Assembly: GCA_964610885.1 (NCBI GenBank)
Contig: CAZSWR010000003.1
Coordinates: forward strand, 29,770-93,769
Length of the DNA stretch: 64,000 nt
Direction: 5' to 3'
Source: an uncultured Hyphomicrobiales bacterium
GTDB lineage: Bacteria; Bacteroidota; Ignavibacteria; Kapaibacteriales; UBA2268
Under the pieces are notes generated by a model. That model ran no database searches, was not told where the DNA came from, and saw nothing but the letters and a program-made list of their open reading frames with translations. Position numbers and translations under genes: made by a program. Positions within the stretch are counted from its first letter, which is position 1, and each line of letters begins with the position of its first letter. Positions 27,891 to 56,302 of this stretch are shown one piece after another.

Positions 27891-30043
27891 TCTACCATAA
27901 ATTTTCCGACGGCCACTGTCCGGCCGCCAACGCTTGCGCGGGCAAAGTACGCACCCTTCGCGAAGGCGCTGCAATCGATGCTGATTTCGGCTGTGGCTGT
28001 GGATTTCTGGAACGCGGCCACGTAACACCGCTCGCCGAGAGATGAGGATACTTCGACAGTACCGCTTCCAACTTCATCGCCACCGATAGTGAGGATTGTT
28101 TGCGCGTGGGCCGGATTCGGCACGGCCACGATCGAATTCATCGGCGGGACGGATCCGTCGCCCTCGGCCGGCGTGAAGTTCCAATCGGGCGCCCATTCGG
28201 CCAGGTCGGAGCGATAGGTCATTGCAAGCAAGTATTTGCCCGACGGAGAAATAATGACTTTGCATATCGGAGTGCCGAACAGGTCATTGTAAACGAACTG
28301 GGTGCGGCCCGACTCGGCGTCCAGGGTTGCTATTTCGCCCATCGAAGATGAATACACAATGTGTTTCCCGTCCGGCGTGTAGTTCAGAGTGAACGGAGCG
28401 ACCCATTTGAGTTTAAAAGTCTTAAGGACGGAACCGTCCGCGGTGGAAAAAATGCGCAGAGTGTCTGTGGAGTCCGCAATGGCAATGCTGCGGCTGTCCG
28501 GCGCGAAGGCGGCCGAGCCATAGCCAATATAGGCATTGTTGAATCCAAGGGCATCAAACACTTTCCCGCCTGTCCGTGTGTTGTATATGCTGTATCCCGC
28601 GTATGGTTCTTTCCAATCGATTAAATAGTTTTTGATGGCGAGGCAAGTATTGCCGTCGGGCGAGAGCTTCACAATCCCGGCGGGGCAATCGAAGGACGCG
28701 CCAACTTCTTTCGTGCGCAGGTCCACCACGAAGGCTTTGCCTGAAGTGTCCTGTACGACTACACTTGTAACGTCTTGATTGGAGCAAGCACGACTCGCAC
28801 CCAATTTAGGAATAGGAATTGAATCCAATAATGCCTCTTCGCCCAAAGTTCGTTTCTCAATCCTGCCTGCGCGGACGTACCACACGCTCTCGAGGGATGG
28901 GTCTAGAGTAAACCGAGGACCTATGAATGGGTATTCATTCAAATTATAAGAATACGAACCGGCATAATTTTCATTTTCAATTTTATTGCCAAAAGAAGAG
29001 GCCCAATAATGCAATGGGCCAACAGAAATTGAAACACCGGCAATTACTTCTTCGTTTTGCGAATATCGCAATGGAAAAGCATAGTAATTATTGAGGGAAT
29101 ATAGTGTGTCCCCATTGAAATTGAAACCAAATAAACTGAAGTCATCAAAGTACAAAAACTTGTCACCCGACCTAAACATCTGGCCATAGAATGGCTTGTT
29201 GTGGCGAGTGAATGGCTTATCAGGTTCCATATAGAATAGAGTATCGCCTGTTTGAAAAATCAGTGCGTTATTCGCCTTGTCGAATAGATATGCACCGCCA
29301 TGGAGAAACAAGCTGTCCTCCCAACGGCACAACTCGGCTCCGTTATCGGAACTGTGCTTAATAAAAAACACACTGTCCGCCGTGAAGAAGCATTTCCCAT
29401 CTTGGGAAAAGCCTCTGAAACTCGAATTGTCGTGGAATCGAGTAAAAAGCGAATCGCCCGTTTTCATGTCGTAGTAAACGTCGAAATACGTATAGGCAAC
29501 TCGCAGGCGTGACCGATCCTTGGATGCTGAAGCGCCCTGCACTTCGTCCCAAGCCTCTTGGGTGGGGAAGCTGAAGGTGGCCAATCGCTCTTTGTTCTCG
29601 AGGTCGTAGCATTTCAGCACGCGCTTATCAAGGCTGTAGAGCGCTTTGATGGGCTTAGAATCGTAGAGGTATTGGCAAAAGGATGAGCCTACCGGGAATG
29701 TGTCGGGGATGGCCAAAGTGCTCATAACATTGCCGTGCTTGTCCTTTTTCTCCACGCTTCGCACTCCATCCATGAAGTATTCGGTGATGAAAGTCGAATC
29801 CGATTCGTCGAACAAAAGGGATAATTGCACAGTGTCGCTTATCAATACGGGAAACCCATTTGCCTTGTTTAGGACAATTGCATGGGATGCATTATTATGA
29901 AAAACGAAGCAATTGTATTGAATTGAGTTCTGAAAACTATCATCATTATTGAAGAAGTTAATGAACTTCAGGTATGGGTTTGTCTTGGCAAAGCAAGTAG
30001 CCGAAATAGCGAGCAGAATCAAAGGGAGGAATGTTTTTTTCAT
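27887..30043 (-). CDS. secreted WD40/beta-propeller protein with a T9SS C-terminal domain
   Basis: Signal peptide MKKTFLPLILLAISATCFA from ATG 30043 (the track starts at TTG 30055). Propeller-like repeats (SPDGNTCLA, APDSRSIAIA, TPDGKHIVYSS, SPSGKYLLA). CTD-like end (VPNPAHAQTILTI...GAYFARASVGGRTVAVGKFMVE). Confidence 0.8.
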   Translation of the reverse strand: MKKTFLPLILLAISATCFAKTNPYLKFINFFNNDDSFQNSIQYNCFVFHNNASHAIVLNKANGFPVLISDTVQLSLLFDESDSTFITEYFMDGVRSVEKKDKHGNVMSTLAIPDTFPVGSSFCQYLYDSKPIKALYSLDKRVLKCYDLENKERLATFSFPTQEAWDEVQGASASKDRSRLRVAYTYFDVYYDMKTGDSLFTRFHDNSSFRGFSQDGKCFFTADSVFFIKHSSDNGAELCRWEDSLFLHGGAYLFDKANNALIFQTGDTLFYMEPDKPFTRHNKPFYGQMFRSGDKFLYFDDFSLFGFNFNGDTLYSLNNYYAFPLRYSQNEEVIAGVSISVGPLHYWASSFGNKIENENYAGSYSYNLNEYPFIGPRFTLDPSLESVWYVRAGRIEKRTLGEEALLDSIPIPKLGASRACSNQDVTSVVVQDTSGKAFVVDLRTKEVGASFDCPAGIVKLSPDGNTCLAIKNYLIDWKEPYAGYSIYNTRTGGKVFDALGFNNAYIGYGSAAFAPDSRSIAIADSTDTLRIFSTADGSVLKTFKLKWVAPFTLNYTPDGKHIVYSSSMGEIATLDAESGRTQFVYNDLFGTPICKVIISPSGKYLLAMTYRSDLAEWAPDWNFTPAEGDGSVPPMNSIVAVPNPAHAQTILTIGGDEVGSGTVEVSSSLGERCYVAAFQKSTATAEISIDCSAFAKGAYFARASVGGRTVAVGKFMVE

Positions 30044-30062
30044 AATAACTTCCAATCTAAAC

Positions 30063-30091
30063 GGGGCTGTTGGAATTACTCCAACAACCCC
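30063..30091 (-). terminator. stem-loop between the decayed cargo gene and the next gene
   Basis: GGGGCTGTTGGA / TCCAACAACCCC (11 of 12 pairs, 5-nt loop) with a weak U-tract on the minus strand. Confidence 0.4.
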
Positions 30092-30099
30092 ATTGATAA

Positions 30100-31002
30100 T
30101 TATTTAACAACAGTGAAAGAACCTGTTAGGAATGAATAGTTCGGAGATACTCCCAATCTAATTCTATAAGTATAGACTCCATTGGGTAATTCAGAGATAT
30201 TCGCGTTTTAAGTACTGTTTAATGAAGAAATGCTGAAAGAATTTGAAATTAAAAGCACATTATATGTATTGTAAATTTCTAGAACACACGTACCTTCGTA
30301 CGATGAAAAGATGTTGAAATTAATTGTTTCTGATGCTGGATTTGGTGAGATACGAACAGTATTTGCATTAAGAGTTGTTGAATCCTGAGGGATAGGATTC
30401 GGATTATTTCCACCACTAGCGGCCTCCATTGCCGAAAGTGTTGTGACTTCTCTTGTTAAAGTTCCGGCGTTATAAATAATTCCACCTGTTGTTGGTGAGA
30501 TAATATCATGATAATGGGGTGGTTCATTAAAGTCTATGGTCATAGGATTATCTGTTGTGCCATTGCCAACGTACATTGGTGCTTCAGAATCGGCCACTGG
30601 GCCACAGGCCATATCAAGGCATTGTTCCTGACAGGGCCTGTTATCACTTGAAATAGCAATATCATCTTGTAAAGTAAATGCACTTCTACTTTTGTTTAAT
30701 TGTTTTCTAACTTTAATTCTGTGTTTACAACATTTTAGCCAACAACTCTGTATATTTGATGTTATCATTCCATCGCTGACATCGTTGTATCTTTCGGTAA
30801 TCGTATTGTTATCATTATCCAACCTTTGATAAAAATAATATGTCAGTCTCAAATCATTTGAAGAATTGTATCCGACACAGCTAGGTGTAGCAATTTCATA
30901 ACTATAAGTAGCACCAATATTCCAAGGATAACGAATAAAAGAATATGCTGACAAAGTAAGCAAATCAACAGCCCTTCTAATATTAAATCTAATCGAAGAC
31001 AT
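30100..31002 (-). pseudogene. decayed T9SS cargo gene whose CTD is split by an in-frame TAA and which has no signal peptide
   Basis: The ORF ends ...ISPNPASETINFNIF...VLEIYNTYNVLLISNSFSISSLNST then TAA (30208-30210). The same frame continues NANISELPNGVYTYRIRLGVSPNYSFLTGSFTVVK to TAA at 30100-30102, which is the missing second half of a T9SS CTD. AT-rich. Confidence 0.7.
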
Positions 31003-31088
31003 ATCTTGAAGAAATCTCTGTGCACAAATATCGCAATTAGATTTTGTGCCATGTGATCCGTTCTGATTTAGATAATATAGATCAAATT

Positions 31089-31493
31089 CTAAAAATTAAC
31101 TTCAATAACAACTTCATTCGCATGTTTCCTTTCTCTAATCCACAATTTTGCAAGGACAACACAATTGTTATCTATTTCATTACCTGAATAAGAACCATCT
31201 GATGTAGTTGGATTTACAGCATGATATTGAAAACCAATAGGATGCCACGGGCCGTAACGACAGTTAGTATCCTCGACAAAACAATTTGGACCTACTACAA
31301 TATAGTCTTCGATATAAGGTCTCATTCTTTCATTATCTAGAACTTCCTCAACATAATCAAATGTCCCTGGGAATAACCCTGTAGGCGGGAATGTTACTAC
31401 TTGAGCTTCTGCAACTACGTTTGCAGCGAAGAGAACGAAAAGCACTGCGAGTGCGGATTTGATAGTCATTTTCATGTAATTTTCTTTTTTCAT
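31089..31493 (-). CDS. small secreted hypothetical protein
   Basis: Signal peptide ...MKMTIKSALAVLFVLFAANVVAEA|Q. Possible starts are at 31493, 31475 or 31469. AT-rich. Confidence 0.5.
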   Translation of the reverse strand: MKKENYMKMTIKSALAVLFVLFAANVVAEAQVVTFPPTGLFPGTFDYVEEVLDNERMRPYIEDYIVVGPNCFVEDTNCRYGPWHPIGFQYHAVNPTTSDGSYSGNEIDNNCVVLAKLWIRERKHANEVVIEVNF

Positions 31494-32220
31494 TTGTGTT
31501 ACAAAAATAAATAATTTTTTCACACAAGCATTGACTATATTTGCAATGCCTGCAAGGGCGAACAAGTGCGGCAGAAATGCCGTGCGAAGGGGTATCCGAA
31601 ACAAAAGTCTTCGAAAACTATTCGGATACTCTTTTTTATATTCATGTCATAGCAATTTCCTTTCTATTCCTTTCGTAAAATCATTTTATACAAATCTACA
31701 AAACAATCCCGAATAAAACAAATAGAAAAATTATATCAACTATTATATTTATCATATACTTATGAATACAGCAAACGGCGGCGGTGGCCAGTTTTGGTTC
31801 GTGGCTTCGGGGGTCAGGCTCTCGCTTCTGGATAAGCCCATCGGCAAAACACTTTTTCGTGAATTGCATTCATTGATATTAGTACAACAATCGAGATTGC
31901 ATTTTGATTCATCTTTTTGAAAATATTTTTTTCGTCGTTTATTATCAACGACTTACGCCTGCGGGAAATTACCCAATAAGCTACTAATTTGAGGTAGTAT
32001 TAATATTTATATGGTTCAATTGCGGATTGAATAGGTTGGGTCAGATTCCAAACCCGACCAAAGGGGATATAATAGAGTTATCTATTGAAAAAGTTGATTC
32101 TGATCGGTTGCACTTCGAGTTTCATAAGACATGTAATATATTGACACAAGAGGAGATTCCTCATTCGCGTGAACGACAGAAACACCCGAATTCAAATAGT
32201 AAATGATACTATTGAAACAT

Positions 32221-33249
32221 TTATCTTTCGTATTCCCCGTTGTAGAATCGGAGGAATTCTGTGATGTTTCTTTCGCTGCCCACGAAAAATGGGGTCTTCT
32301 GGTGAATTGAATCGGGCTTGATTTCGAGAATTCTCTGCTTGCCGGTCGTGGCCCTGCCTCCGGCCTGCTCGATGATGAACGAAAGGGGATTCGCTTCGTA
32401 AATAAGCCGAATTTTTCCGTCAGGTTGCGCTTCGTCCGCCGGATAGAGATATATTCCACCGTAATGGAGAATACGGTGCACGTCGCCAACGGCTGTTGCG
32501 ATATATCGCATATAATACGGCCTGGTTTTGTCCTCCGAAGGTGTTTTGATCCAATTAAGGTAGTTGCGGACTCGTTCGCTCCAGTTGAGTACGTTGCCTT
32601 CGTTGCACGAATAATGATTTCCCCAGATGGGCATGATAAGGTTCTTTTTGGTAAGAAGAAATTCGCCGATTGTGGGGTCGAAAGTGAAAACGTTGACGCC
32701 GTTCCCCGTGGTGTAAGCAAAAAGGGTGCTGCTGCCATAGAGGGCGTATCCGGCGGCCAACTGTTTGTATCCGGGCTGTAGCACGTCTTCGCGGGTGCCG
32801 TCGTTGTTAGCCGACGGATCCAGCCGTTCGTAGATCGAGAAAATGCTGCCGATGGTGATGTTCACGTCGATATTCGTGGAGCCGTCCACCGGGTCGAATA
32901 GCAGGACATATTTCCCGAGTGTGTATTTTTTGGGTATGCGAATTATATCGGTGCTCTCCTCGGAGGCCATAGCGCAGAAGTGCCCGCCATAGCTCATGGT
33001 TCGGATAATGGCTTCGTTGGCGTATTCGTCCAGCCGGCGCAGTCTGTCCCCCGAATAGTTAAAGCTGTCGGTCATGCCGAGTATGTCGTTCAGTCCGGCT
33101 CGGCGCACTTCCTTTGCTATCAAACGGATTGCGAAGGCCAGGTCTGCCAGGATGAGTGTGAATTCGCCTGTTGCCTCGGGGTGCACGGCTTGCTCTTCGG
33201 CCAGGTGGCGGCCGATCGTTACCAATTGCGATATATTATTCAATGCCAT
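32221..33249 (-). CDS. fbp: class 1 fructose-1,6-bisphosphatase
   Basis: 342 aa with LFDPVDGSTNID metal site, GSSTLFAY and GGIYLYPAD. Confidence 0.93.
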   Translation of the reverse strand: MALNNISQLVTIGRHLAEEQAVHPEATGEFTLILADLAFAIRLIAKEVRRAGLNDILGMTDSFNYSGDRLRRLDEYANEAIIRTMSYGGHFCAMASEESTDIIRIPKKYTLGKYVLLFDPVDGSTNIDVNITIGSIFSIYERLDPSANNDGTREDVLQPGYKQLAAGYALYGSSTLFAYTTGNGVNVFTFDPTIGEFLLTKKNLIMPIWGNHYSCNEGNVLNWSERVRNYLNWIKTPSEDKTRPYYMRYIATAVGDVHRILHYGGIYLYPADEAQPDGKIRLIYEANPLSFIIEQAGGRATTGKQRILEIKPDSIHQKTPFFVGSERNITEFLRFYNGEYER

Positions 33250-33328: not shown

Positions 33329-33598
33329 TCAATAAATCTTTCTTTCTCGCTTTATGCGTCTCAAATACTGTGCCGAAACATTCAGATTGGCCGCAATTTG
33401 ACTGACGGATGTGTCCCGATTTTCGCGCAGGTAGCGTTCCACAAATTTGTCGAATCGGGAAATCCGCGGGAAATAAATGCTTACGCCCGCAAATTCGCGT
33501 AGCAGCCCGCGGACCACCTCCATGCCGAGCGCGTCGGCCACCATACGCAGGTCCTCCGTCAGCTCGTCCGGCCTCAAGGCCTCGAATACATTTTTCAT
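33329..33598 (-). CDS. Mor-like (phage Mu middle-operon-regulator family) small transcriptional activator
   Basis: 89 aa. The layout matches short Mor-family proteins: L..DLRMVADALGMEVVRGLLREFAGVSIYFPRIS followed by a C-terminal HTH (SVSQIAANLNVSAQYLRRIKRE). ATGA overlap with the upstream ORF. Confidence 0.6.
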   Translation of the reverse strand: MKNVFEALRPDELTEDLRMVADALGMEVVRGLLREFAGVSIYFPRISRFDKFVERYLRENRDTSVSQIAANLNVSAQYLRRIKRERKIY

Positions 33599-33906
33599 CG
33601 CCCAGCGCCCTCCTCTGCGAAGTCAGGCATACAATACGGCTCGAGGGCCGACCAATTCCTTTCGGAAAACTCTCCGACTATGAACGCCAAGTCCGCGTGG
33701 TCATCCTCGGAAATAATGCTCTGAGCGGCGCCGAGCGCCAGCACACAATCGACAGCCCTCACGAGCGAATCGACATCCGCGATCGCCTCGACAGCCGATT
33801 GCAATGCCTCCTGGCACCTGCCAATGGCCAACGCCCGCCTCCGGGCCAATTGCGACTGCTCCGCAAGGCCTCCGGCCCCAATCCGATTCCTAATATTAAC
33901 TGACAT
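33595..33906 (-). CDS. hypothetical acidic 103-aa protein, first gene of the leftward operon
   Basis: Its ATG at 33906 is the first start codon downstream of the leftward promoter, and its stop overlaps the next ATG (ATGA). No recognisable domain. A 164-aa ORF on the opposite strand overlaps it. Confidence 0.5.
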   Translation of the reverse strand: MSVNIRNRIGAGGLAEQSQLARRRALAIGRCQEALQSAVEAIADVDSLVRAVDCVLALGAAQSIISEDDHADLAFIVGEFSERNWSALEPYCMPDFAEEGAGR

Positions 33907-33942: not shown

Positions 33943-33971
33943 TTGACAAAAAGCTGAACATTTGTTATATT
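33943..33971 (+). promoter_or_regulatory. sigma70-type promoter P(right): TTGACA-N17-TATATT
   Basis: TTGACA at 33943-33948, a 17-nt spacer, then TATATT at 33966-33971. It points toward the HTH/S24 genes. Confidence 0.6.
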
Positions 33972-33978
33972 GGAAATG

Positions 33979-34054
33979 GTAAATATTACAATATTGAAAA
34001 GTAATATTTACTCTAATATAAGTAAATAATACGACAATGTCAAGTAATATTTAC
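33979..34054. promoter_or_regulatory. array of four 11-bp GTAA-N3-TTAC palindromic operator-like sites
   Basis: GTAAATATTAC at 33979-33989, GTAATATTTAC at 34001-34011, GTAAATAATAC at 34022-34032 and GTAATATTTAC at 34044-34054. Centre-to-centre spacing is 22, 21 and 22 bp. Confidence 0.65.
34015..34043 (-). promoter_or_regulatory. sigma70-type promoter P(left): TTGACA-N17-TATATT on the minus strand
   Basis: The minus strand reads GTAAATATTAC-TTGACA-ttgtcgtattatttact-TATATT-aga-GTAAATATTAC. The -35 is at 34043-34038 and the -10 at 34020-34015. Confidence 0.6.
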
Positions 34055-34127
34055 GAATATCGAAAATATATTTTTTGATGTATGGCTGGCTTTTGGGAAG
34101 GCACCAAACTCAAACTATACCGGCACA

Positions 34128-34550
34128 ATGTTACTAACACGAAGGGAATTCCAAATGGAAGAAATCAACAAGGCCATCGGCAAGCGATTGCAGGATGTGC
34201 GCAGGATCTACAACAACGGCTACCGTTGCTCTGCCGAACAGTTGGCCGCCGAGATTGGCGAATCCGTGGCAAATATTCGGAACTACGAATGCGGAAAGGC
34301 CGGCATTCCCAATCGTGTATTGTTGGCTCTGTACCACAAAGGAATTAATCCGATATACTTGCTTTCTGGCGAGGGTGAAGTCCACGCGCCAAACGCTGCC
34401 GGCGCTGCGCTCGGGTCGAGGACAATTGAGAACAAATTGAACAATGCGCAGTCTGTCTATCGGATCGAATCGCCCGCTCGGCCCGAAGGTATCGGGACGG
34501 CGGCTGCCGGTTCCATCGAGGATGAAATCAAGAGCAAGGGCAGAAAATGA
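34128..34550 (+). CDS. XRE-family helix-turn-helix regulator (stand-alone HTH with a long tail)
   Basis: HTH region: IGKRLQDVRRIYNNGYRCSAEQLAAEIGESVANIRNYECGKAGIP. The tail contains Ala-Gly dipeptides (NAAGAAL, TAAAGS). An alternative ATG lies at 34155. The stop overlaps the next ATG (ATGA). Confidence 0.8.
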   Translation: MLLTRREFQMEEINKAIGKRLQDVRRIYNNGYRCSAEQLAAEIGESVANIRNYECGKAGIPNRVLLALYHKGINPIYLLSGEGEVHAPNAAGAALGSRTIENKLNNAQSVYRIESPARPEGIGTAAAGSIEDEIKSKGRK

Positions 34551-35140
34551 ACTATTACGAAATGACGGACACAGAGCTGCGGAGGAAAATCAAGCGTTAC
34601 TACATGGACGAGCACTACGGGCTGCGGGACCGCGCCTCGGCGCTCGCCGAATTATTGTCCGAGAGTTCGCGGCGGCTCGAAAGGTCGTATTCGGGAACCA
34701 TTTCGATTTTCGATAGCGCAATTAACGACGCCGTGAAGGAAATCGGCGGACTGGACGCCGCTGCGTTTTCTCGCCGAGCATCCGCGAGGCCGGGCAATAC
34801 GGGCGCTCCTGGCATTGCGGCCGTCGAGCACCATGGCCCGGTACCGAAGGATTACGTGGTCTATCGCATAAGTGGCGATTCGATGATCGGCGCGGGAATT
34901 TCGGACGGGGACAGCGTCGTAGTCGAGCTTGCCAGCCCCGAGCTTTCTATCAATAGCTTTGACGGGAAAATTGTGGTCGCCGAGGTGTGCGGAGTGTCGT
35001 TCGTCAAAAGGCTCTGCTCCTGCGGCAATTCTTCGTTGCTACTGAAGTCCGAGAACCCGAAATATCCACCGTACGAGTTGAAAACATCCGATTCGCTGAA
35101 ACTGATCGGCGAAGTGAAGCAGATTATTCATAATATTTAA
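34547..35140 (+). CDS. S24 (LexA/UmuD/cI-type) peptidase-domain protein lacking an HTH, with an unknown ~95-aa N-domain
   Basis: 197 aa with the catalytic-type Ser in YRISGDS112MIGAGI and Lys in SFVK154RL, plus an S24 beta-core (GDSVVVEL, GKIVVAEV, LLLKSENPKY). Confidence 0.75.
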   Translation: MNYYEMTDTELRRKIKRYYMDEHYGLRDRASALAELLSESSRRLERSYSGTISIFDSAINDAVKEIGGLDAAAFSRRASARPGNTGAPGIAAVEHHGPVPKDYVVYRISGDSMIGAGISDGDSVVVELASPELSINSFDGKIVVAEVCGVSFVKRLCSCGNSSLLLKSENPKYPPYELKTSDSLKLIGEVKQIIHNI

Positions 35141-35370: not shown

Positions 35371-36306
35371 ATGAGCAAAGAGAAATTTATGGATTCCCGC
35401 TTCGGGCAATACTTCTTTATCGCCATCGGTTCCGCGATCATGGCGTTGGGAATCGGCGTATTCATGGTCGATGCAAAAGTGGTCCCTGGAGGGGTTAGCG
35501 GCCTCTCGATTGCCGTGCACTACCTGACTGGCGGAAATCTGCCCGTCGGTATGCTGATGTGGGTAATGAACATACCTCTATATATATGGGGATTGAAAGA
35601 ACTCGGTAAGACTTTTGGAGTTCGGACATTCTATGCGTTCACACTCAACTCGGTCTTTATCGATTTGTTCCGTGGCGACATCCCCGGGTTTAGATTCATC
35701 AGGCTTCAGGACATGACCGCAGTTCAGGAATTGCTACAGCACGATTTCTTGTTCTTCGTCCTGATCGGTGCCGTGCTGCTGGGCGTTGGCCTTGGAATCA
35801 TATTTAAATTCCGCGGTACGACCGCCGGATCGGATATTGTGGCCTCGATCATGCAGAAACGCGCCGGCTTCAAGCCCGGCCAGGCAATCATGATCATCGA
35901 CTTCTTCGTTATCACGTTCGCCGGCATCGTCATCGGCATGAACGATATTTCGCCGGAACGTTCGGCAATGACGCTGACTTTCTACGCTTTCCTTTCGTTG
36001 TACCTGTCGAGCAAAATTATCGATGTCATCATCGACGGCTTCGACTATGCCCGCGTGGCGTATATCATTAGCGAAAAAAGCGACGACATTGGCAATCTGA
36101 TCCTCCACGACATGGGCCGCGGCGCCACAGCGTACAAGACTCGTGGACTCTACACAAACCAAGACCGCGAAGTGCTCATGGTCGTCTGCTCCGTCAAGGA
36201 AGTAAGCACGCTCACGGAAGAAATCCGCGCGATCGACCCGAATGCGTTCATCATCATAAGCAACGTACACGAGGTCATGGGCAAGGGCTTCCGCCGCAGG
36301 ATATAA
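35371..36306 (+). CDS. YitT-family membrane protein (DUF2179 C-domain)
   Basis: 311 aa, multi-TM N-region (FFIAIGSAIMALGIGVFMV...) and C-terminal DUF2179-like region (NAFIIISNVHEVMGKGF). Confidence 0.75.
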   Translation: MSKEKFMDSRFGQYFFIAIGSAIMALGIGVFMVDAKVVPGGVSGLSIAVHYLTGGNLPVGMLMWVMNIPLYIWGLKELGKTFGVRTFYAFTLNSVFIDLFRGDIPGFRFIRLQDMTAVQELLQHDFLFFVLIGAVLLGVGLGIIFKFRGTTAGSDIVASIMQKRAGFKPGQAIMIIDFFVITFAGIVIGMNDISPERSAMTLTFYAFLSLYLSSKIIDVIIDGFDYARVAYIISEKSDDIGNLILHDMGRGATAYKTRGLYTNQDREVLMVVCSVKEVSTLTEEIRAIDPNAFIIISNVHEVMGKGFRRRI

Positions 36307-53862: not shown

Positions 53863-54549
53863 ATGAAAAAAAAGTTAACGATTGATAGCTTGATTAATGA
53901 AGCCAAAATATTCTCGAATTCGGAATCATTACTCGAAAACAGCGAGCTTTTTGGTATCACAGACGGAAAAGCTGTAGGGACATATATCGAACAAAAGTTT
54001 CAAAATCATTTACTATCCAAATATGAACTTGAGATAGGTTCATCAGCATCGGGAATTGACCTGCCTTCTGATGAAATTATGACGGATATAAAAGTAACAT
54101 CAATCAAACAGCCACAGTCATCGTGTCCATTCAAGGATGCAAGGCAGAAAATATTCGGTTTGGATTACAATTTATTAGTTTTTGTTTATAATAAATCTGA
54201 CAATACCATTACCAAAACTGCTAAACTAGATTTTTTAAGCTGCATATTCCTGTCCAAGAATAGAACTGCTGACTACACAACCACTTATCGGCTCAGGCAG
54301 ATGATTGCGGACAAAGCCAACTCGGATGATATTATTTCATATCTTAGAGACAGAAACATCCCGGCAGACGAGATAACTTTGCAGAACTTAGCCGAGGAGA
54401 TTCTGTTACGTCCCCCGTCCCAAGGTTATCTTACAATATCCAACGCTTTGCAATGGAGATTGCAATATGGCAGGTTGGTATCGCTAAGCGATGAAATCGA
54501 TGGTGTTATAAGAATTGTTGACAAAGTTGCAAAAAATGATACTAACTGA
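53863..54549 (+). CDS. putative type II restriction endonuclease (PD-(D/E)xK)
   Basis: 228 aa, AT-rich. Candidate core is E43...GID66LP...D75-I-K77. It overlaps the adjacent MTase gene by 14 nt. The assignment rests mainly on context. Confidence 0.55.
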   Translation: MKKKLTIDSLINEAKIFSNSESLLENSELFGITDGKAVGTYIEQKFQNHLLSKYELEIGSSASGIDLPSDEIMTDIKVTSIKQPQSSCPFKDARQKIFGLDYNLLVFVYNKSDNTITKTAKLDFLSCIFLSKNRTADYTTTYRLRQMIADKANSDDIISYLRDRNIPADEITLQNLAEEILLRPPSQGYLTISNALQWRLQYGRLVSLSDEIDGVIRIVDKVAKNDTN

Positions 54550-56302
54550 CACAAACATTAATAATATAGCAAAAGAATTCCTGCTTAATTTGGTAAATGC
54601 AGAAGCATCAATCGACATGTTGAATGCCGAAATTGAAACCGTTTGCGGAATTCGTGATTTTTTCGCGAACAGCGGCGAGCTTGACGCTTTCCGCCAAACA
54701 ATTAGCAACAGACAGGAAACGATTCATGATAGAAATAAGGTTGAATATGGCGATTTTCAGACGAATTTGAACCTTGCCCGCTCCGTATGCAGTCAAATTA
54801 ATCCCCAGAACAACGAGCCTCTTGTCTTGGTAGAGCCAACATGTGGCAAGGGTCATTTTATCATTGCTGCATTAGATACTTACCAATCAATTTGTTCGAT
54901 AATCGGAATCGAAATCTATCAGCCCTATGTGTGGGAAGCAAAACTTAACATACTTGAATACTTTTTGAAGAATGATCGAAACCGAAAACCATCGATTAGA
55001 ATCATTCATGCAAATGTTTTCGATTATAGCTTCATCGGTTTGAAAAAAGAATTCAAGTCCTCGAATTTCCTGATAATCGGGAATCCGCCATGGGTTACGA
55101 ATTCCGGGCTGGGCAAAATTGCGTCAACGAACCTTCCGAAAAAGGTTAATATTAATAAAACAAGTGGGATCGAAGCACTTACCGGAAAAGGGAATTTCGA
55201 TATTGCCGAAAGCATAGTGCTCCGGCTCATTGATGCGTTTGGCGATTCAAATGCTACGATTGGCCTTTTAGTCAAAAACTCCGTAATAAAGAATTTGATG
55301 TATTACCAACACAAAAAGAAATATCCCATTCGCAATATTAAAAAATTCAATATCGATGCGAAAAAGGAATTCGATGTGTCCGTTGGAGCATCTCTTCTAT
55401 ATGCCGAAATAGACAATCAATACAGTTTGCAATGCAGAGAATATGACCTTTATTCGAATCAATACTTGAAGTCCTTCGGTTGGGCCGAGGATAAGTTTAT
55501 TTCAGACATTGATGAATACTCGAGCAATATCGAAGGAGTATGCCAAATCGAATGGAGGCAAGGCATTAAGCACGACTGCTCAGAAATTATGGATTTCGAG
55601 ATATTTGGCGATAGATTTACGAACTCGAAGGGAGATGTTTTCGACTTAGAAACCGATTTGGTTTACGGACTGATTAAGAGTTCAGACCTAAAACATAGGG
55701 TTGTTGATTCTGTAAGAAAATACACAATTGTAACTCAATCATTCATCGGCCAGGATACGGAGTACTTAGAAAAGAAGTATCCCAAAGTATTCAAATACCT
55801 CGATGCGAACAGATCGAGATTCAATTCTCGCAAATCATCCATTTACTCCGGCAAGGCACCTTTTTCGATCTTCGGTATTGGCGATTACTCTTTCAAGCCA
55901 TATAAAGTTGCAATTTCTGGCTTGTATAAAAAACCGGATTTCTCTTTGATAATGCCCCTCCAATCGAAACCTACGATGCTTGATGACACCTGTTATTTCA
56001 TCGGTTTCGATATATTGGAATATGCTGTTTTTTCAATGATACTGCTAAATTCCAGTATCACAAAAAAGTTCTTGAACTCGATTGTTTTTCTGGATTCCAA
56101 AAGGCCATACACAAAAGATATTTTGATGCGCATTGACCTGTTTGCAATTGCCACACTTATCTCTTTTTCGGAAGTGGAAATTAGCTTTAATCAAATAAAG
56201 CATGAGAAATTGTCCGACATCGACATTACTCTTTGGGATAGTTACCTCAGTTCTGTTTTCAGAAATACTAAAAACCAATTAGCTCTATTTGAAACCACAT
56301 AA
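54536..56302 (+). CDS. N6-adenine DNA methyltransferase (TaqI/Eco57I-like gamma class)
   Basis: Motif I is [11 protein letters not shown], upstream of motif [11 protein letters not shown], with a long C-terminal target-recognition region. The ATG at 54536 is preferred over the TTG at 54515. Confidence 0.8.

Follow-up and report, generated by a model that had tools for sequence, protein, structure and literature searches.

A conserved HTH–S24 gene pair that may form a split LexA-type switch in a Kapabacteria-like lineage

The window, that is the whole stretch of 64,000 nucleotides (nt) that was analysed (contig CAZSWR010000003.1, positions 29,770 to 93,769 of the forward strand), encodes at its positions 34128 to 35140 a helix-turn-helix (HTH) protein followed by a protein with a peptidase S24 domain. 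Two open reading frames (ORFs) were confirmed at this place, 34128..34550 (+, 140 amino acids (aa)) and 34547..35140 (+, 197 aa), which share the four letters ATGA. The pair is one half of a conserved four-gene cassette, the other half of which is transcribed divergently. Here we describe the cassette and suggest, with roughly even confidence and on the ground of sequence comparison, that the pair may act as a two-protein LexA-type switch, in which the S24 protease would cut the HTH repressor in trans.

The N-terminus of every relative corresponds to Met10 of the HTH protein (MEEIN...). Hence its start is most likely 34155 and the protein has 131 rather than 140 residues, which corrects the start at 34128 given in the initial annotation. 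Residue numbers of the HTH protein refer below to the 131-aa form, so the Ala-Gly dipeptides first numbered A127-G128 and A91-G92 appear as A118-G119 and A82-G83.

A search of 5.8 billion proteins returned five full-length relatives of the S24 protein, and the search with the HTH protein likewise gave five. Loci were gathered from the contigs of these relatives and from metagenome contigs, which were scanned for the operator sequence described below. The scan for this DNA pattern contributed two further members, and protein-pattern searches of genome and metagenome contigs yielded no others. In total the family comprises eight loci (the window, L007, L005, L001, L004, L008, L090 and L091). The HTH and S24 genes are separate and overlapping in each of them; the overlap is 4 nt long in six, the window included, and 8 nt long in L008 and L090, with the S24 start of L091 only approximately mapped. 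For the HTH protein the lowest identity to the window is 40%, and for the S24 protein the values go down to ~29% (tblastn) or 32% (alignment) in L090 and to 23% in the partial L091. Synonymous sites are saturated or nearly so, and the ratio of nonsynonymous to synonymous substitution rates (dN/dS) is 0.04–0.07 for the HTH gene and 0.09–0.15 for the S24 gene. A fused HTH–S24 homologue was found in none of the protein and profile searches. Judged by this comparison, the two-protein architecture is real, ancient and under selection. The statement of the initial annotation that HTH and protease reside on separate, coupled proteins is thus borne out by the overlap that recurs in all eight loci, and the survey of homologues for a fused frame that it called for returned none among them. 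As a side observation, L100 and L007 share the run SRR9674393 and their S24 proteins are 78% identical, i.e. they represent two cassette alleles; by this measure, related strains or species with different versions of the cassette coexist.

The HTH protein matches Pfam HTH_3 (PF01381) only weakly and below the cutoff (15.3 bits, cutoff 23), and has a match at 5.5e-5 to PHROG 8 'transcriptional regulator'. A profile search of PDB gave weak matches to HTH-containing EDF1 chains (E 0.7), and five short helices are present in a low-confidence model of the protein. We assign it, weakly and from its sequence, to the XRE-type regulators. In the alignment of the eight family sequences residues 1–83 form a conserved domain with a mean pairwise identity of 0.69, which is followed by a variable tail (residues 84–131) with mean pairwise identities of 0.27 before and 0.28 after a short motif. 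The invariant columns of the tail are A117, A118, G119 and I121 only, each conserved in all eight sequences; the probability that four invariant columns among 48 lie within five positions by chance is ~9e-4. The motif reads [AV]-A-A-G-x-I, with an exact V-A-A-G in three members, and its first four positions match the P3–P1' residues of the E. coli LexA site, V-A-A/G (the slash marks the cut).

The initial annotation had pointed to two Ala-Gly dipeptides in the HTH protein. One of them stands, since A118-G119 (codons 34506–34511) is invariant in eight of eight sequences, while the other, A82-G83, drops out: its Gly is invariant, but distant members carry E, P or S in place of the Ala. Thirteen residues follow A118 in the window (GSIEDEIKSKGRK, ~1.4 kDa), and a cut after the equivalent residue would remove 13–18 residues across the family. 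The predicted cleaved C-termini of all eight members end in ...AA (TAAA, VAAA, LAAA, IAAA, TVAA or QVAA).

The S24 protein matches Pfam Peptidase_S24 (PF00717) with E 2.3e-16 and 60 bits, above the cutoff of 23.3. The match spans only profile positions 32–115 of 116, which correspond to residues 100–190. Ser112 (GDSM) and Lys154 (FVKRL) align with the UmuD catalytic motifs SGDSM and VKKL, and both are invariant in the family, as G-D/E-S-M and V-K-R. The nearest solved relatives by sequence in PDB are UmuD and UmuD' (E ~1e-6). In NCBIfam the protein remains below the cutoffs of both the UmuD model PRK10276 (53.3 bits, cutoff 110) and the LexA model TIGR00498 (40.8 bits, cutoff 110.95), the latter being matched by the core alone. 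In the AlphaFold2 model the core has predicted local distance difference test (pLDDT) values of 94–98, and its best Foldseek matches are the LexA C-terminal domain and UmuD' (root-mean-square deviation ~2 Å, ~93 columns, probability 1.00). By profile, dyad and fold the catalytic domain belongs to peptidase S24. A COG2856-type zinc metalloprotease domain was searched for in the pair with Pfam, NCBIfam and PADLOC and gave no match, S24 being the sole protease domain found.

A conserved cleavage site of its own is missing from the S24 protein. In peptidase S24 such an Ala-Gly or Cys-Gly site would be expected ~35 residues before the catalytic Ser, but no conserved [AC]-G precedes it in the family: six of the eight S24 proteins have none within 60 aa, and the remaining two carry [AC]G at non-homologous positions. 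The variable linker occupies here the position of the stretch that follows the cleavage site in UmuD and LexA. As Foldseek aligns only ~93 columns, the model has no counterpart of LexA's cleavage-site region, and the N-terminal domain has no structural match in that search. Residues 1–95 gave no Pfam, NCBIfam, PHROG, PADLOC or PDB match, and a profile of the N-terminal domain run against 1.84 billion representative proteins found just three clusters, all of this family. The helices that AlphaFold2 predicts in this domain lie at residues 8–23, 30–46 and 54–79, with pLDDT of 63–81. The initial description of the S24 protein, with Ser112, Lys154 and an unrecognised N-terminal region, is therefore confirmed by the Pfam match, the invariance of the dyad and the matchless residues 1–95.

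The best 120 non-family relatives of the S24 core are all stand-alone UmuD-type proteins of 98–177 aa, none with an HTH, and the canonical [AC]G[FY]PSP arm is present in 79 of the 118 that were examined. The lack of a conserved cleavage site of its own thus appears unusual among the relatives of its core. The same 120 proteins indicate that the 'split cI/LexA' origin proposed initially is probably wrong, and recruitment of a UmuD-like protease seems at least as likely as the fission of a cI-like gene. Two stand-alone S24 proteins without the UmuD arm, P0029 and P0041, have no adjoining HTH gene, so nothing indicates that the split design is widespread. The best non-family match to the core profile is P0018 (L103, 2–364, +), whose ORF is open to the first letters of its contig and whose core (GESM...NANINEGD) is similar to the L008 one. 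Possibly this is a further, ninth member of the family, cut by the contig end.

The divergent operon encodes a conserved 103-aa protein and an 89-aa Mor-like putative activator, and all four cassette genes are present in L001, L004, L008 and L090. The 103-aa protein has no Pfam, PHROG, PADLOC or PDB match. The 89-aa protein falls just below the cutoff of Pfam Mor (PF08765; 2e-4, 21.8 bits, cutoff 24.9) and matches PHROG 836 'late transcriptional activator' at 5.6e-7 and the Mor protein of phage Mu (1rr7) at E 0.078. Between the window and L001 the identity is 98% for the Mor-like protein, 73% for the HTH protein, 65% for the S24 protein and 49% for the 103-aa protein; the Mor-like gene, with dN/dS of 0.015 in this comparison, is the most conserved of the cassette. 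Two further ORFs of the window, 33409–33903 (+, 164 aa) and 34082–34348 (+, 88 aa), cross the cassette either antisense or in another frame. Their translations are of low complexity and Arg/Pro-rich, they have no gene calls in the contigs of the relatives, and they are most likely spurious.

The region between the two operons holds four candidate operators of the form GTAA-N3-TTAC, which start at 33979, 34001, 34022 (one mismatch) and 34044, i.e. with a spacing of 22/21/22 base pairs (bp). The 64-kb window contains three exact copies of the pattern, all in the array, versus 0.15 expected; outside the array the whole window has none, so there are no regulon candidates in it. GTAA-N3-TTAC sites are also found in L001, L004, L007, L008 and L090, and the three loci in which all four are exact retain the 22/21/22 spacing. 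The predicted start of the rightward transcript (~33978) lies on operator 1, and the CTTGACAAAAAGC...TATATT of this promoter is kept in L001, L004 and L008. The leftward promoter is overlain by operators 2–4 at its start site, in its spacer and immediately upstream of the -35; the leftward -10 (AATATA on the + strand) and its -35 (TTGACA/TTGCAT) are kept in the same three loci. Both predicted promoters are strong, sigma-70-like and oriented face-to-face. Since their predicted starts are ~30 bp apart, the transcripts would overlap by ~30 nt. The switch promoters of coliphages 186 and P2 are likewise face-to-face, and the facing promoters of the cassette could add transcriptional interference to the switch. 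As predicted from the positions of these sites, the repressor would tightly shut the leftward operon and limit its own synthesis.

An exact 33-nt palindrome, GTAAATATTAC-N11-GTAATATTTAC, which comprises operators 1 and 2, was also seen in metagenome contigs without family genes (L089 166–198; L093 458–490; L094 1256–1288; L096 5689–5721; L097 13815–13847; L098 746–778; L099 2213–2245; L095 3209–3241). Most of these copies are just downstream of a phospholipase-D-like gene of ~360–380 aa, and those in L094 and L099 are ~230 nt upstream of the following gene. They could be sites of a related regulator, hairpins or coincidence. In L092 the palindrome (1522–1554) stands at the start of a gene for an 85-aa XRE-type HTH protein (1274–1528, -), which is unrelated to the family by tblastn. 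This hints that small HTH regulators of more than one kind use GTAA-N3-TTAC.

Table 1. Features of the HTH–S24 cassette in coordinates of the window
Feature	Coordinates	Strand	Remarks
HTH gene	34155..34550	+	131 aa, XRE-type (weak assignment); NCBI call starts at 34128, 140 aa
ATGA stop/start overlap of the HTH and S24 genes	34547..34550	+	read as translational coupling
Codons of A117-A118-G119-S120-I121	34503..34517	+	sole invariant island of the HTH tail; candidate scissile bond A118-G119
N-terminal domain of the S24 protein	34547..34786	+	residues 1–80; predicted three helices
Variable linker of the S24 protein	34787..34858	+	residues 81–104; mean pairwise identity 0.19
S24 catalytic core	34859..35140	+	residues 105–197, then stop; Ser112 34880–34882, Lys154 35006–35008
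Promoter-like site of the HTH–S24 operon	33943..33971	+	TTGACA, 17 nt, TATATT, TG before -10; 11/12 matches
Operator array	33979..34054	.	four 11-bp palindromes GTAA-N3-TTAC, within the 250-bp inter-operon region
Promoter-like site of the leftward operon	34015..34043	-	TTGACA, 17 nt, TATATT; 11/12 matches
103-aa conserved protein	33595..33906	-	first gene of the divergent operon; fastest-evolving cassette gene
89-aa Mor-like putative activator	33329..33598	-	second gene of the divergent operon; weak matches

We suggest the following sequence of events for the switch. In the first step, the 131-aa HTH protein would bind the four GTAA-N3-TTAC operators. It would thus shut the leftward promoter, from which the 103-aa and Mor-like genes are read, and would repress the HTH–S24 operon as well. 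Its 197-aa partner, made by co-translation, would be a UmuD-derived Ser-Lys protease that has lost its own cleavage-site arm and gained a new N-terminal domain.

In the second step, a signal would cause the protease to cut the repressor in trans at the A118-G119 bond. This signal would most likely be filaments of RecA on single-stranded DNA, a trigger that we infer solely from the likeness to UmuD and LexA. In vitro, the C-terminal fragment of LexA reportedly cleaves LexA in trans, which Kim and Little are said to have described in 1993. UmuD cleaves intermolecularly and gives a precedent for an S24 enzyme that acts on another chain (PMC9926225).

In the third step, the repressor would be inactivated. 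The cut removes just 13–18 residues, therefore a follow-up step is needed. The N-terminal fragment of LexA ends in ...VAA, which resembles the ...LAA of the ssrA tag, and because of this resemblance we propose that the new ...AA end of the repressor may act as a ClpX-type degron and make it a substrate of ClpXP. According to PMC10584840, citing Neher et al. 2003, cleaved LexA is destroyed, as the cut uncovers latent ClpX recognition signals. Alternatively or in addition, the tail that is released by the cut might tether the repressor to the protease dimer via the helical N-terminal domain. The tethered repressor–protease complex would then imitate a LexA dimer, and cleavage would dissolve it.

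In the last step, with the loss of the repressor, the Mor-like activator would be made and would switch on unlinked genes. For the scheme as a whole, that is a split LexA-type switch with degron and Mor-like cascade that serves as a chromosomal DNA-damage regulator of a Kapabacteria-like lineage, our confidence is tentative and stays slightly short of even.

Several observations weigh against cleavage in trans. Shedding of 13–18 residues alone does not part a DNA-binding from a dimerisation domain, unlike the cut in LexA. The residues after the Gly read x-I-x-x-x-I/L without Pro, unlike those of LexA (E-P-L), lambda cI and UmuD (F-P-S-P), and they could form a docking helix instead. When the HTH tail is spliced onto the S24 core, the Pfam match hardly changes (profile start 30 versus 32; 62.5 versus 61.9 bits). 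Docking of the tail was judged by pLDDT and secondary structure of joined-chain AlphaFold2 models. With the HTH protein joined to the S24 protein and a shallow block alignment the mean pLDDT is 56, with the tail <50. With the tail (84–131) joined to the S24 protein and an alignment that included 45 added UmuD-type cores, the Ala-Ala-Gly has pLDDT of ~40–57 and forms no strand. On the level of these models the structure work confirms the protease fold and neither supports nor refutes docking of the HTH tail. The family is also tiny and leaves little for co-variation analysis between the HTH and S24 proteins.

A different role of the tail has to be considered, modelled on DdrR with UmuDAb. The Ala-Ala-Gly would then be part of a docking helix for the N-terminal domain of the S24 protein and not a cleavage site, and the S24 protein would be a co-repressor or sensor which cuts itself at a non-canonical, non-conserved place of the linker, or cuts a third protein. 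AlphaFold2 gives, with low confidence, a short helix just past the Gly and not a strand in the cleft; this stretch is amphipathic and lacks the Pro usual in LexA and UmuD sites, and the S24 protein does have a conserved N-terminal domain for the tail to dock to. However, the invariant Ser-Lys dyad calls for a substrate and the S24 protein has no conserved [AC]-G, nor are the Ala-Gly dipeptides of the 103-aa and Mor-like proteins conserved. The exact V-A-A-G of three HTH members is moreover like the LexA site. We consider the docking role unlikely.

Still less probable, in our estimate, is that the S24 protein is an ordinary UmuD-like translesion-synthesis factor or self-processing protein which merely shares an operon with an unrelated HTH gene. 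Its core is indeed nearest to UmuD by NCBIfam (53.3 bits), by the PDB sequence search and by its closest homologues, but the NCBIfam score is far under the cutoff of 110, the cleavage-site arm is missing, no locus has an adjoining Y-family polymerase gene (the neighbours being fbp and yitT), and all loci show translational coupling of the HTH and S24 genes.

A cI-like gene broken by a frameshift, or a fusion made by programmed frameshifting at the overlap, is highly improbable: the A-AAA-TGA of the window would permit a -1 slip of the lysine tRNA, but two loci have CGG-AAA-TGA instead, the 8-nt overlap of L008 and L090 shifts the S24 gene into the alternative frame relative to the HTH gene, fused homologues are absent from all searches, and the split is kept in eight of eight loci at saturated synonymous divergence and under strong purifying selection on both ORFs. 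We therefore reject decay by frameshift, which the initial annotation had also disfavoured, on the conservation of the split and dN/dS of 0.04–0.15, and reject the programmed fusion as unlikely, since neither the slippery sequence nor the frame of the overlap is conserved.

The cassette sits between fbp (32221–33249) and a yitT-family gene (35371–36306). The window also encodes LeuRS, HtpG, OmpA-like proteins, sensor kinases and a protein with a type IX secretion sorting domain, and no tRNA genes were found in its 64 kb. The LeuRS is most similar, at ~70% identity, to proteins of metagenome-assembled genomes labelled Candidatus Kapaibacterium, Ignavibacteria and 'FCB group'. The surroundings are ordinary chromosome and not prophage. 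The position between fbp and yitT is shared with L001 (fbp 95% and yitT 96% identical), its fbp side with L008 (81%), and the neighbourhood on the yitT side is kept in L002, L004, L005 and L006; the sharing of this position across loci thus indicates long vertical inheritance of the cassette. Among viral contigs and GenBank phages, no operator and no HTH homologue were found, and the S24 protein has there only core-level matches to UmuD and repressors. There is hence no sign of a phage origin. PADLOC found no defence-system match at a meaningful level for the four cassette proteins.

L090, the most distant full cassette, has flanks other than fbp and yitT. One of its neighbours (2680–2967, +, 95 aa) looks by eye like a RelE/YafQ-type toxin, and the L090 cassette thus has a different, possibly mobile context. 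Elsewhere in the window, the G+C content is lower (0.36–0.39 versus ~0.5) at 30001–32000 and 54001–56000. The first of these stretches includes the ORFs 30208–31002, without a Pfam match, and 31089–31604. The low-G+C stretches may be acquired islands.

The S24 repressors, such as LexA, cI, SetR, PrtR and the non-canonical LexA of Bacteroidetes, are textbook self-destroying regulators. To our knowledge, all characterised S24 regulators carry the cleavage site and the protease on a single chain or, as in UmuD, on two identical chains, and we know the intermolecular reaction of LexA so far only from experiments with fragments in vitro. Among the open-access papers searched we found many single-chain S24 regulators, including the non-canonical Bacteroidetes LexA and FddR of Francisella, and no case of a separate S24 protein cutting a repressor. 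If the proposed mechanism is true, the pair would be the first S24 counterpart of ImmR/ImmA, DdrO/IrrE and CapH/CapP and a natural case of the intermolecular LexA reaction. It would mean that an S24 switch can evolve modularly, as the metalloprotease pairs ImmR/ImmA and DdrO/IrrE do, and would offer a two-component setting in which substrate recognition and the co-protease action of RecA can be studied free of self-cleavage. The pair might also explain how DNA damage is sensed in a poorly known lineage, and it suggests a design for engineered protease-controlled repressors. Its practical reach is limited, since family members are very rare and their hosts uncultured.

Among known systems, the pair resembles LexA and lambda cI in the Ser-Lys S24 fold, the [AV]-A-A-G-type candidate site, the putative HTH DNA-binding domain and the candidate palindromic operators in its own promoter, and likely also in a response to DNA damage. 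It differs in having the protease on another chain than the DNA-binding domain and the site, in the extra N-terminal helical domain of the protease, and in that the cut would shed only 13–18 residues. UmuD is the closest sequence relative of the core and likewise reacts between two chains (PMC9926225). However, the S24 protein of the pair has neither the C/A-G-F-P-S-P arm nor an adjoining umuC and is below the NCBIfam cutoff, and its substrate would be another protein and not a second copy of itself. UmuDAb/DdrR of Acinetobacter is also a repressor system with a UmuD-derived S24 protein and a small partner (PMC11332147). There UmuDAb has its own DNA-binding N-terminal domain and cleaves itself, whereas DdrR is not an HTH protein with a cleavage motif.

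The arrangement of a repressor over a small activator gene has its likeness in RdgA/RdgB of Pectobacterium and PrtR/PrtN of Pseudomonas. In both systems an S24-type repressor controls an activator which switches on unlinked genes, and RdgB is Mor-like. RdgA and PrtR differ from the pair in being single-chain HTH–S24 proteins. RdgA/RdgB appear as pectin-lyase regulators in the reference Liu et al. 1994.

The closest parallel in the logic of two proteins is given by ImmR/ImmA of ICEBs1, DdrO/IrrE of Deinococcus and CapH/CapP of CBASS, where an XRE repressor is likewise accompanied by a separately encoded cognate protease. ImmR and ImmA are encoded in one operon, which diverges from the genes under their control. 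The gene layout of the cassette, with the repressor followed by the protease and divergent from the operon under control, fits the ImmR/ImmA-like logic suggested in the initial annotation. ImmR/ImmA has been described as a regulator/protease tandem (PMC8960796), and in DdrO/IrrE the XRE repressor is inactivated by a separate protease (PMC6868357). The proteases of these three systems are COG2856 zinc metalloproteases, whereas the pair described here combines S24 Ser-Lys chemistry with a LexA-type site.

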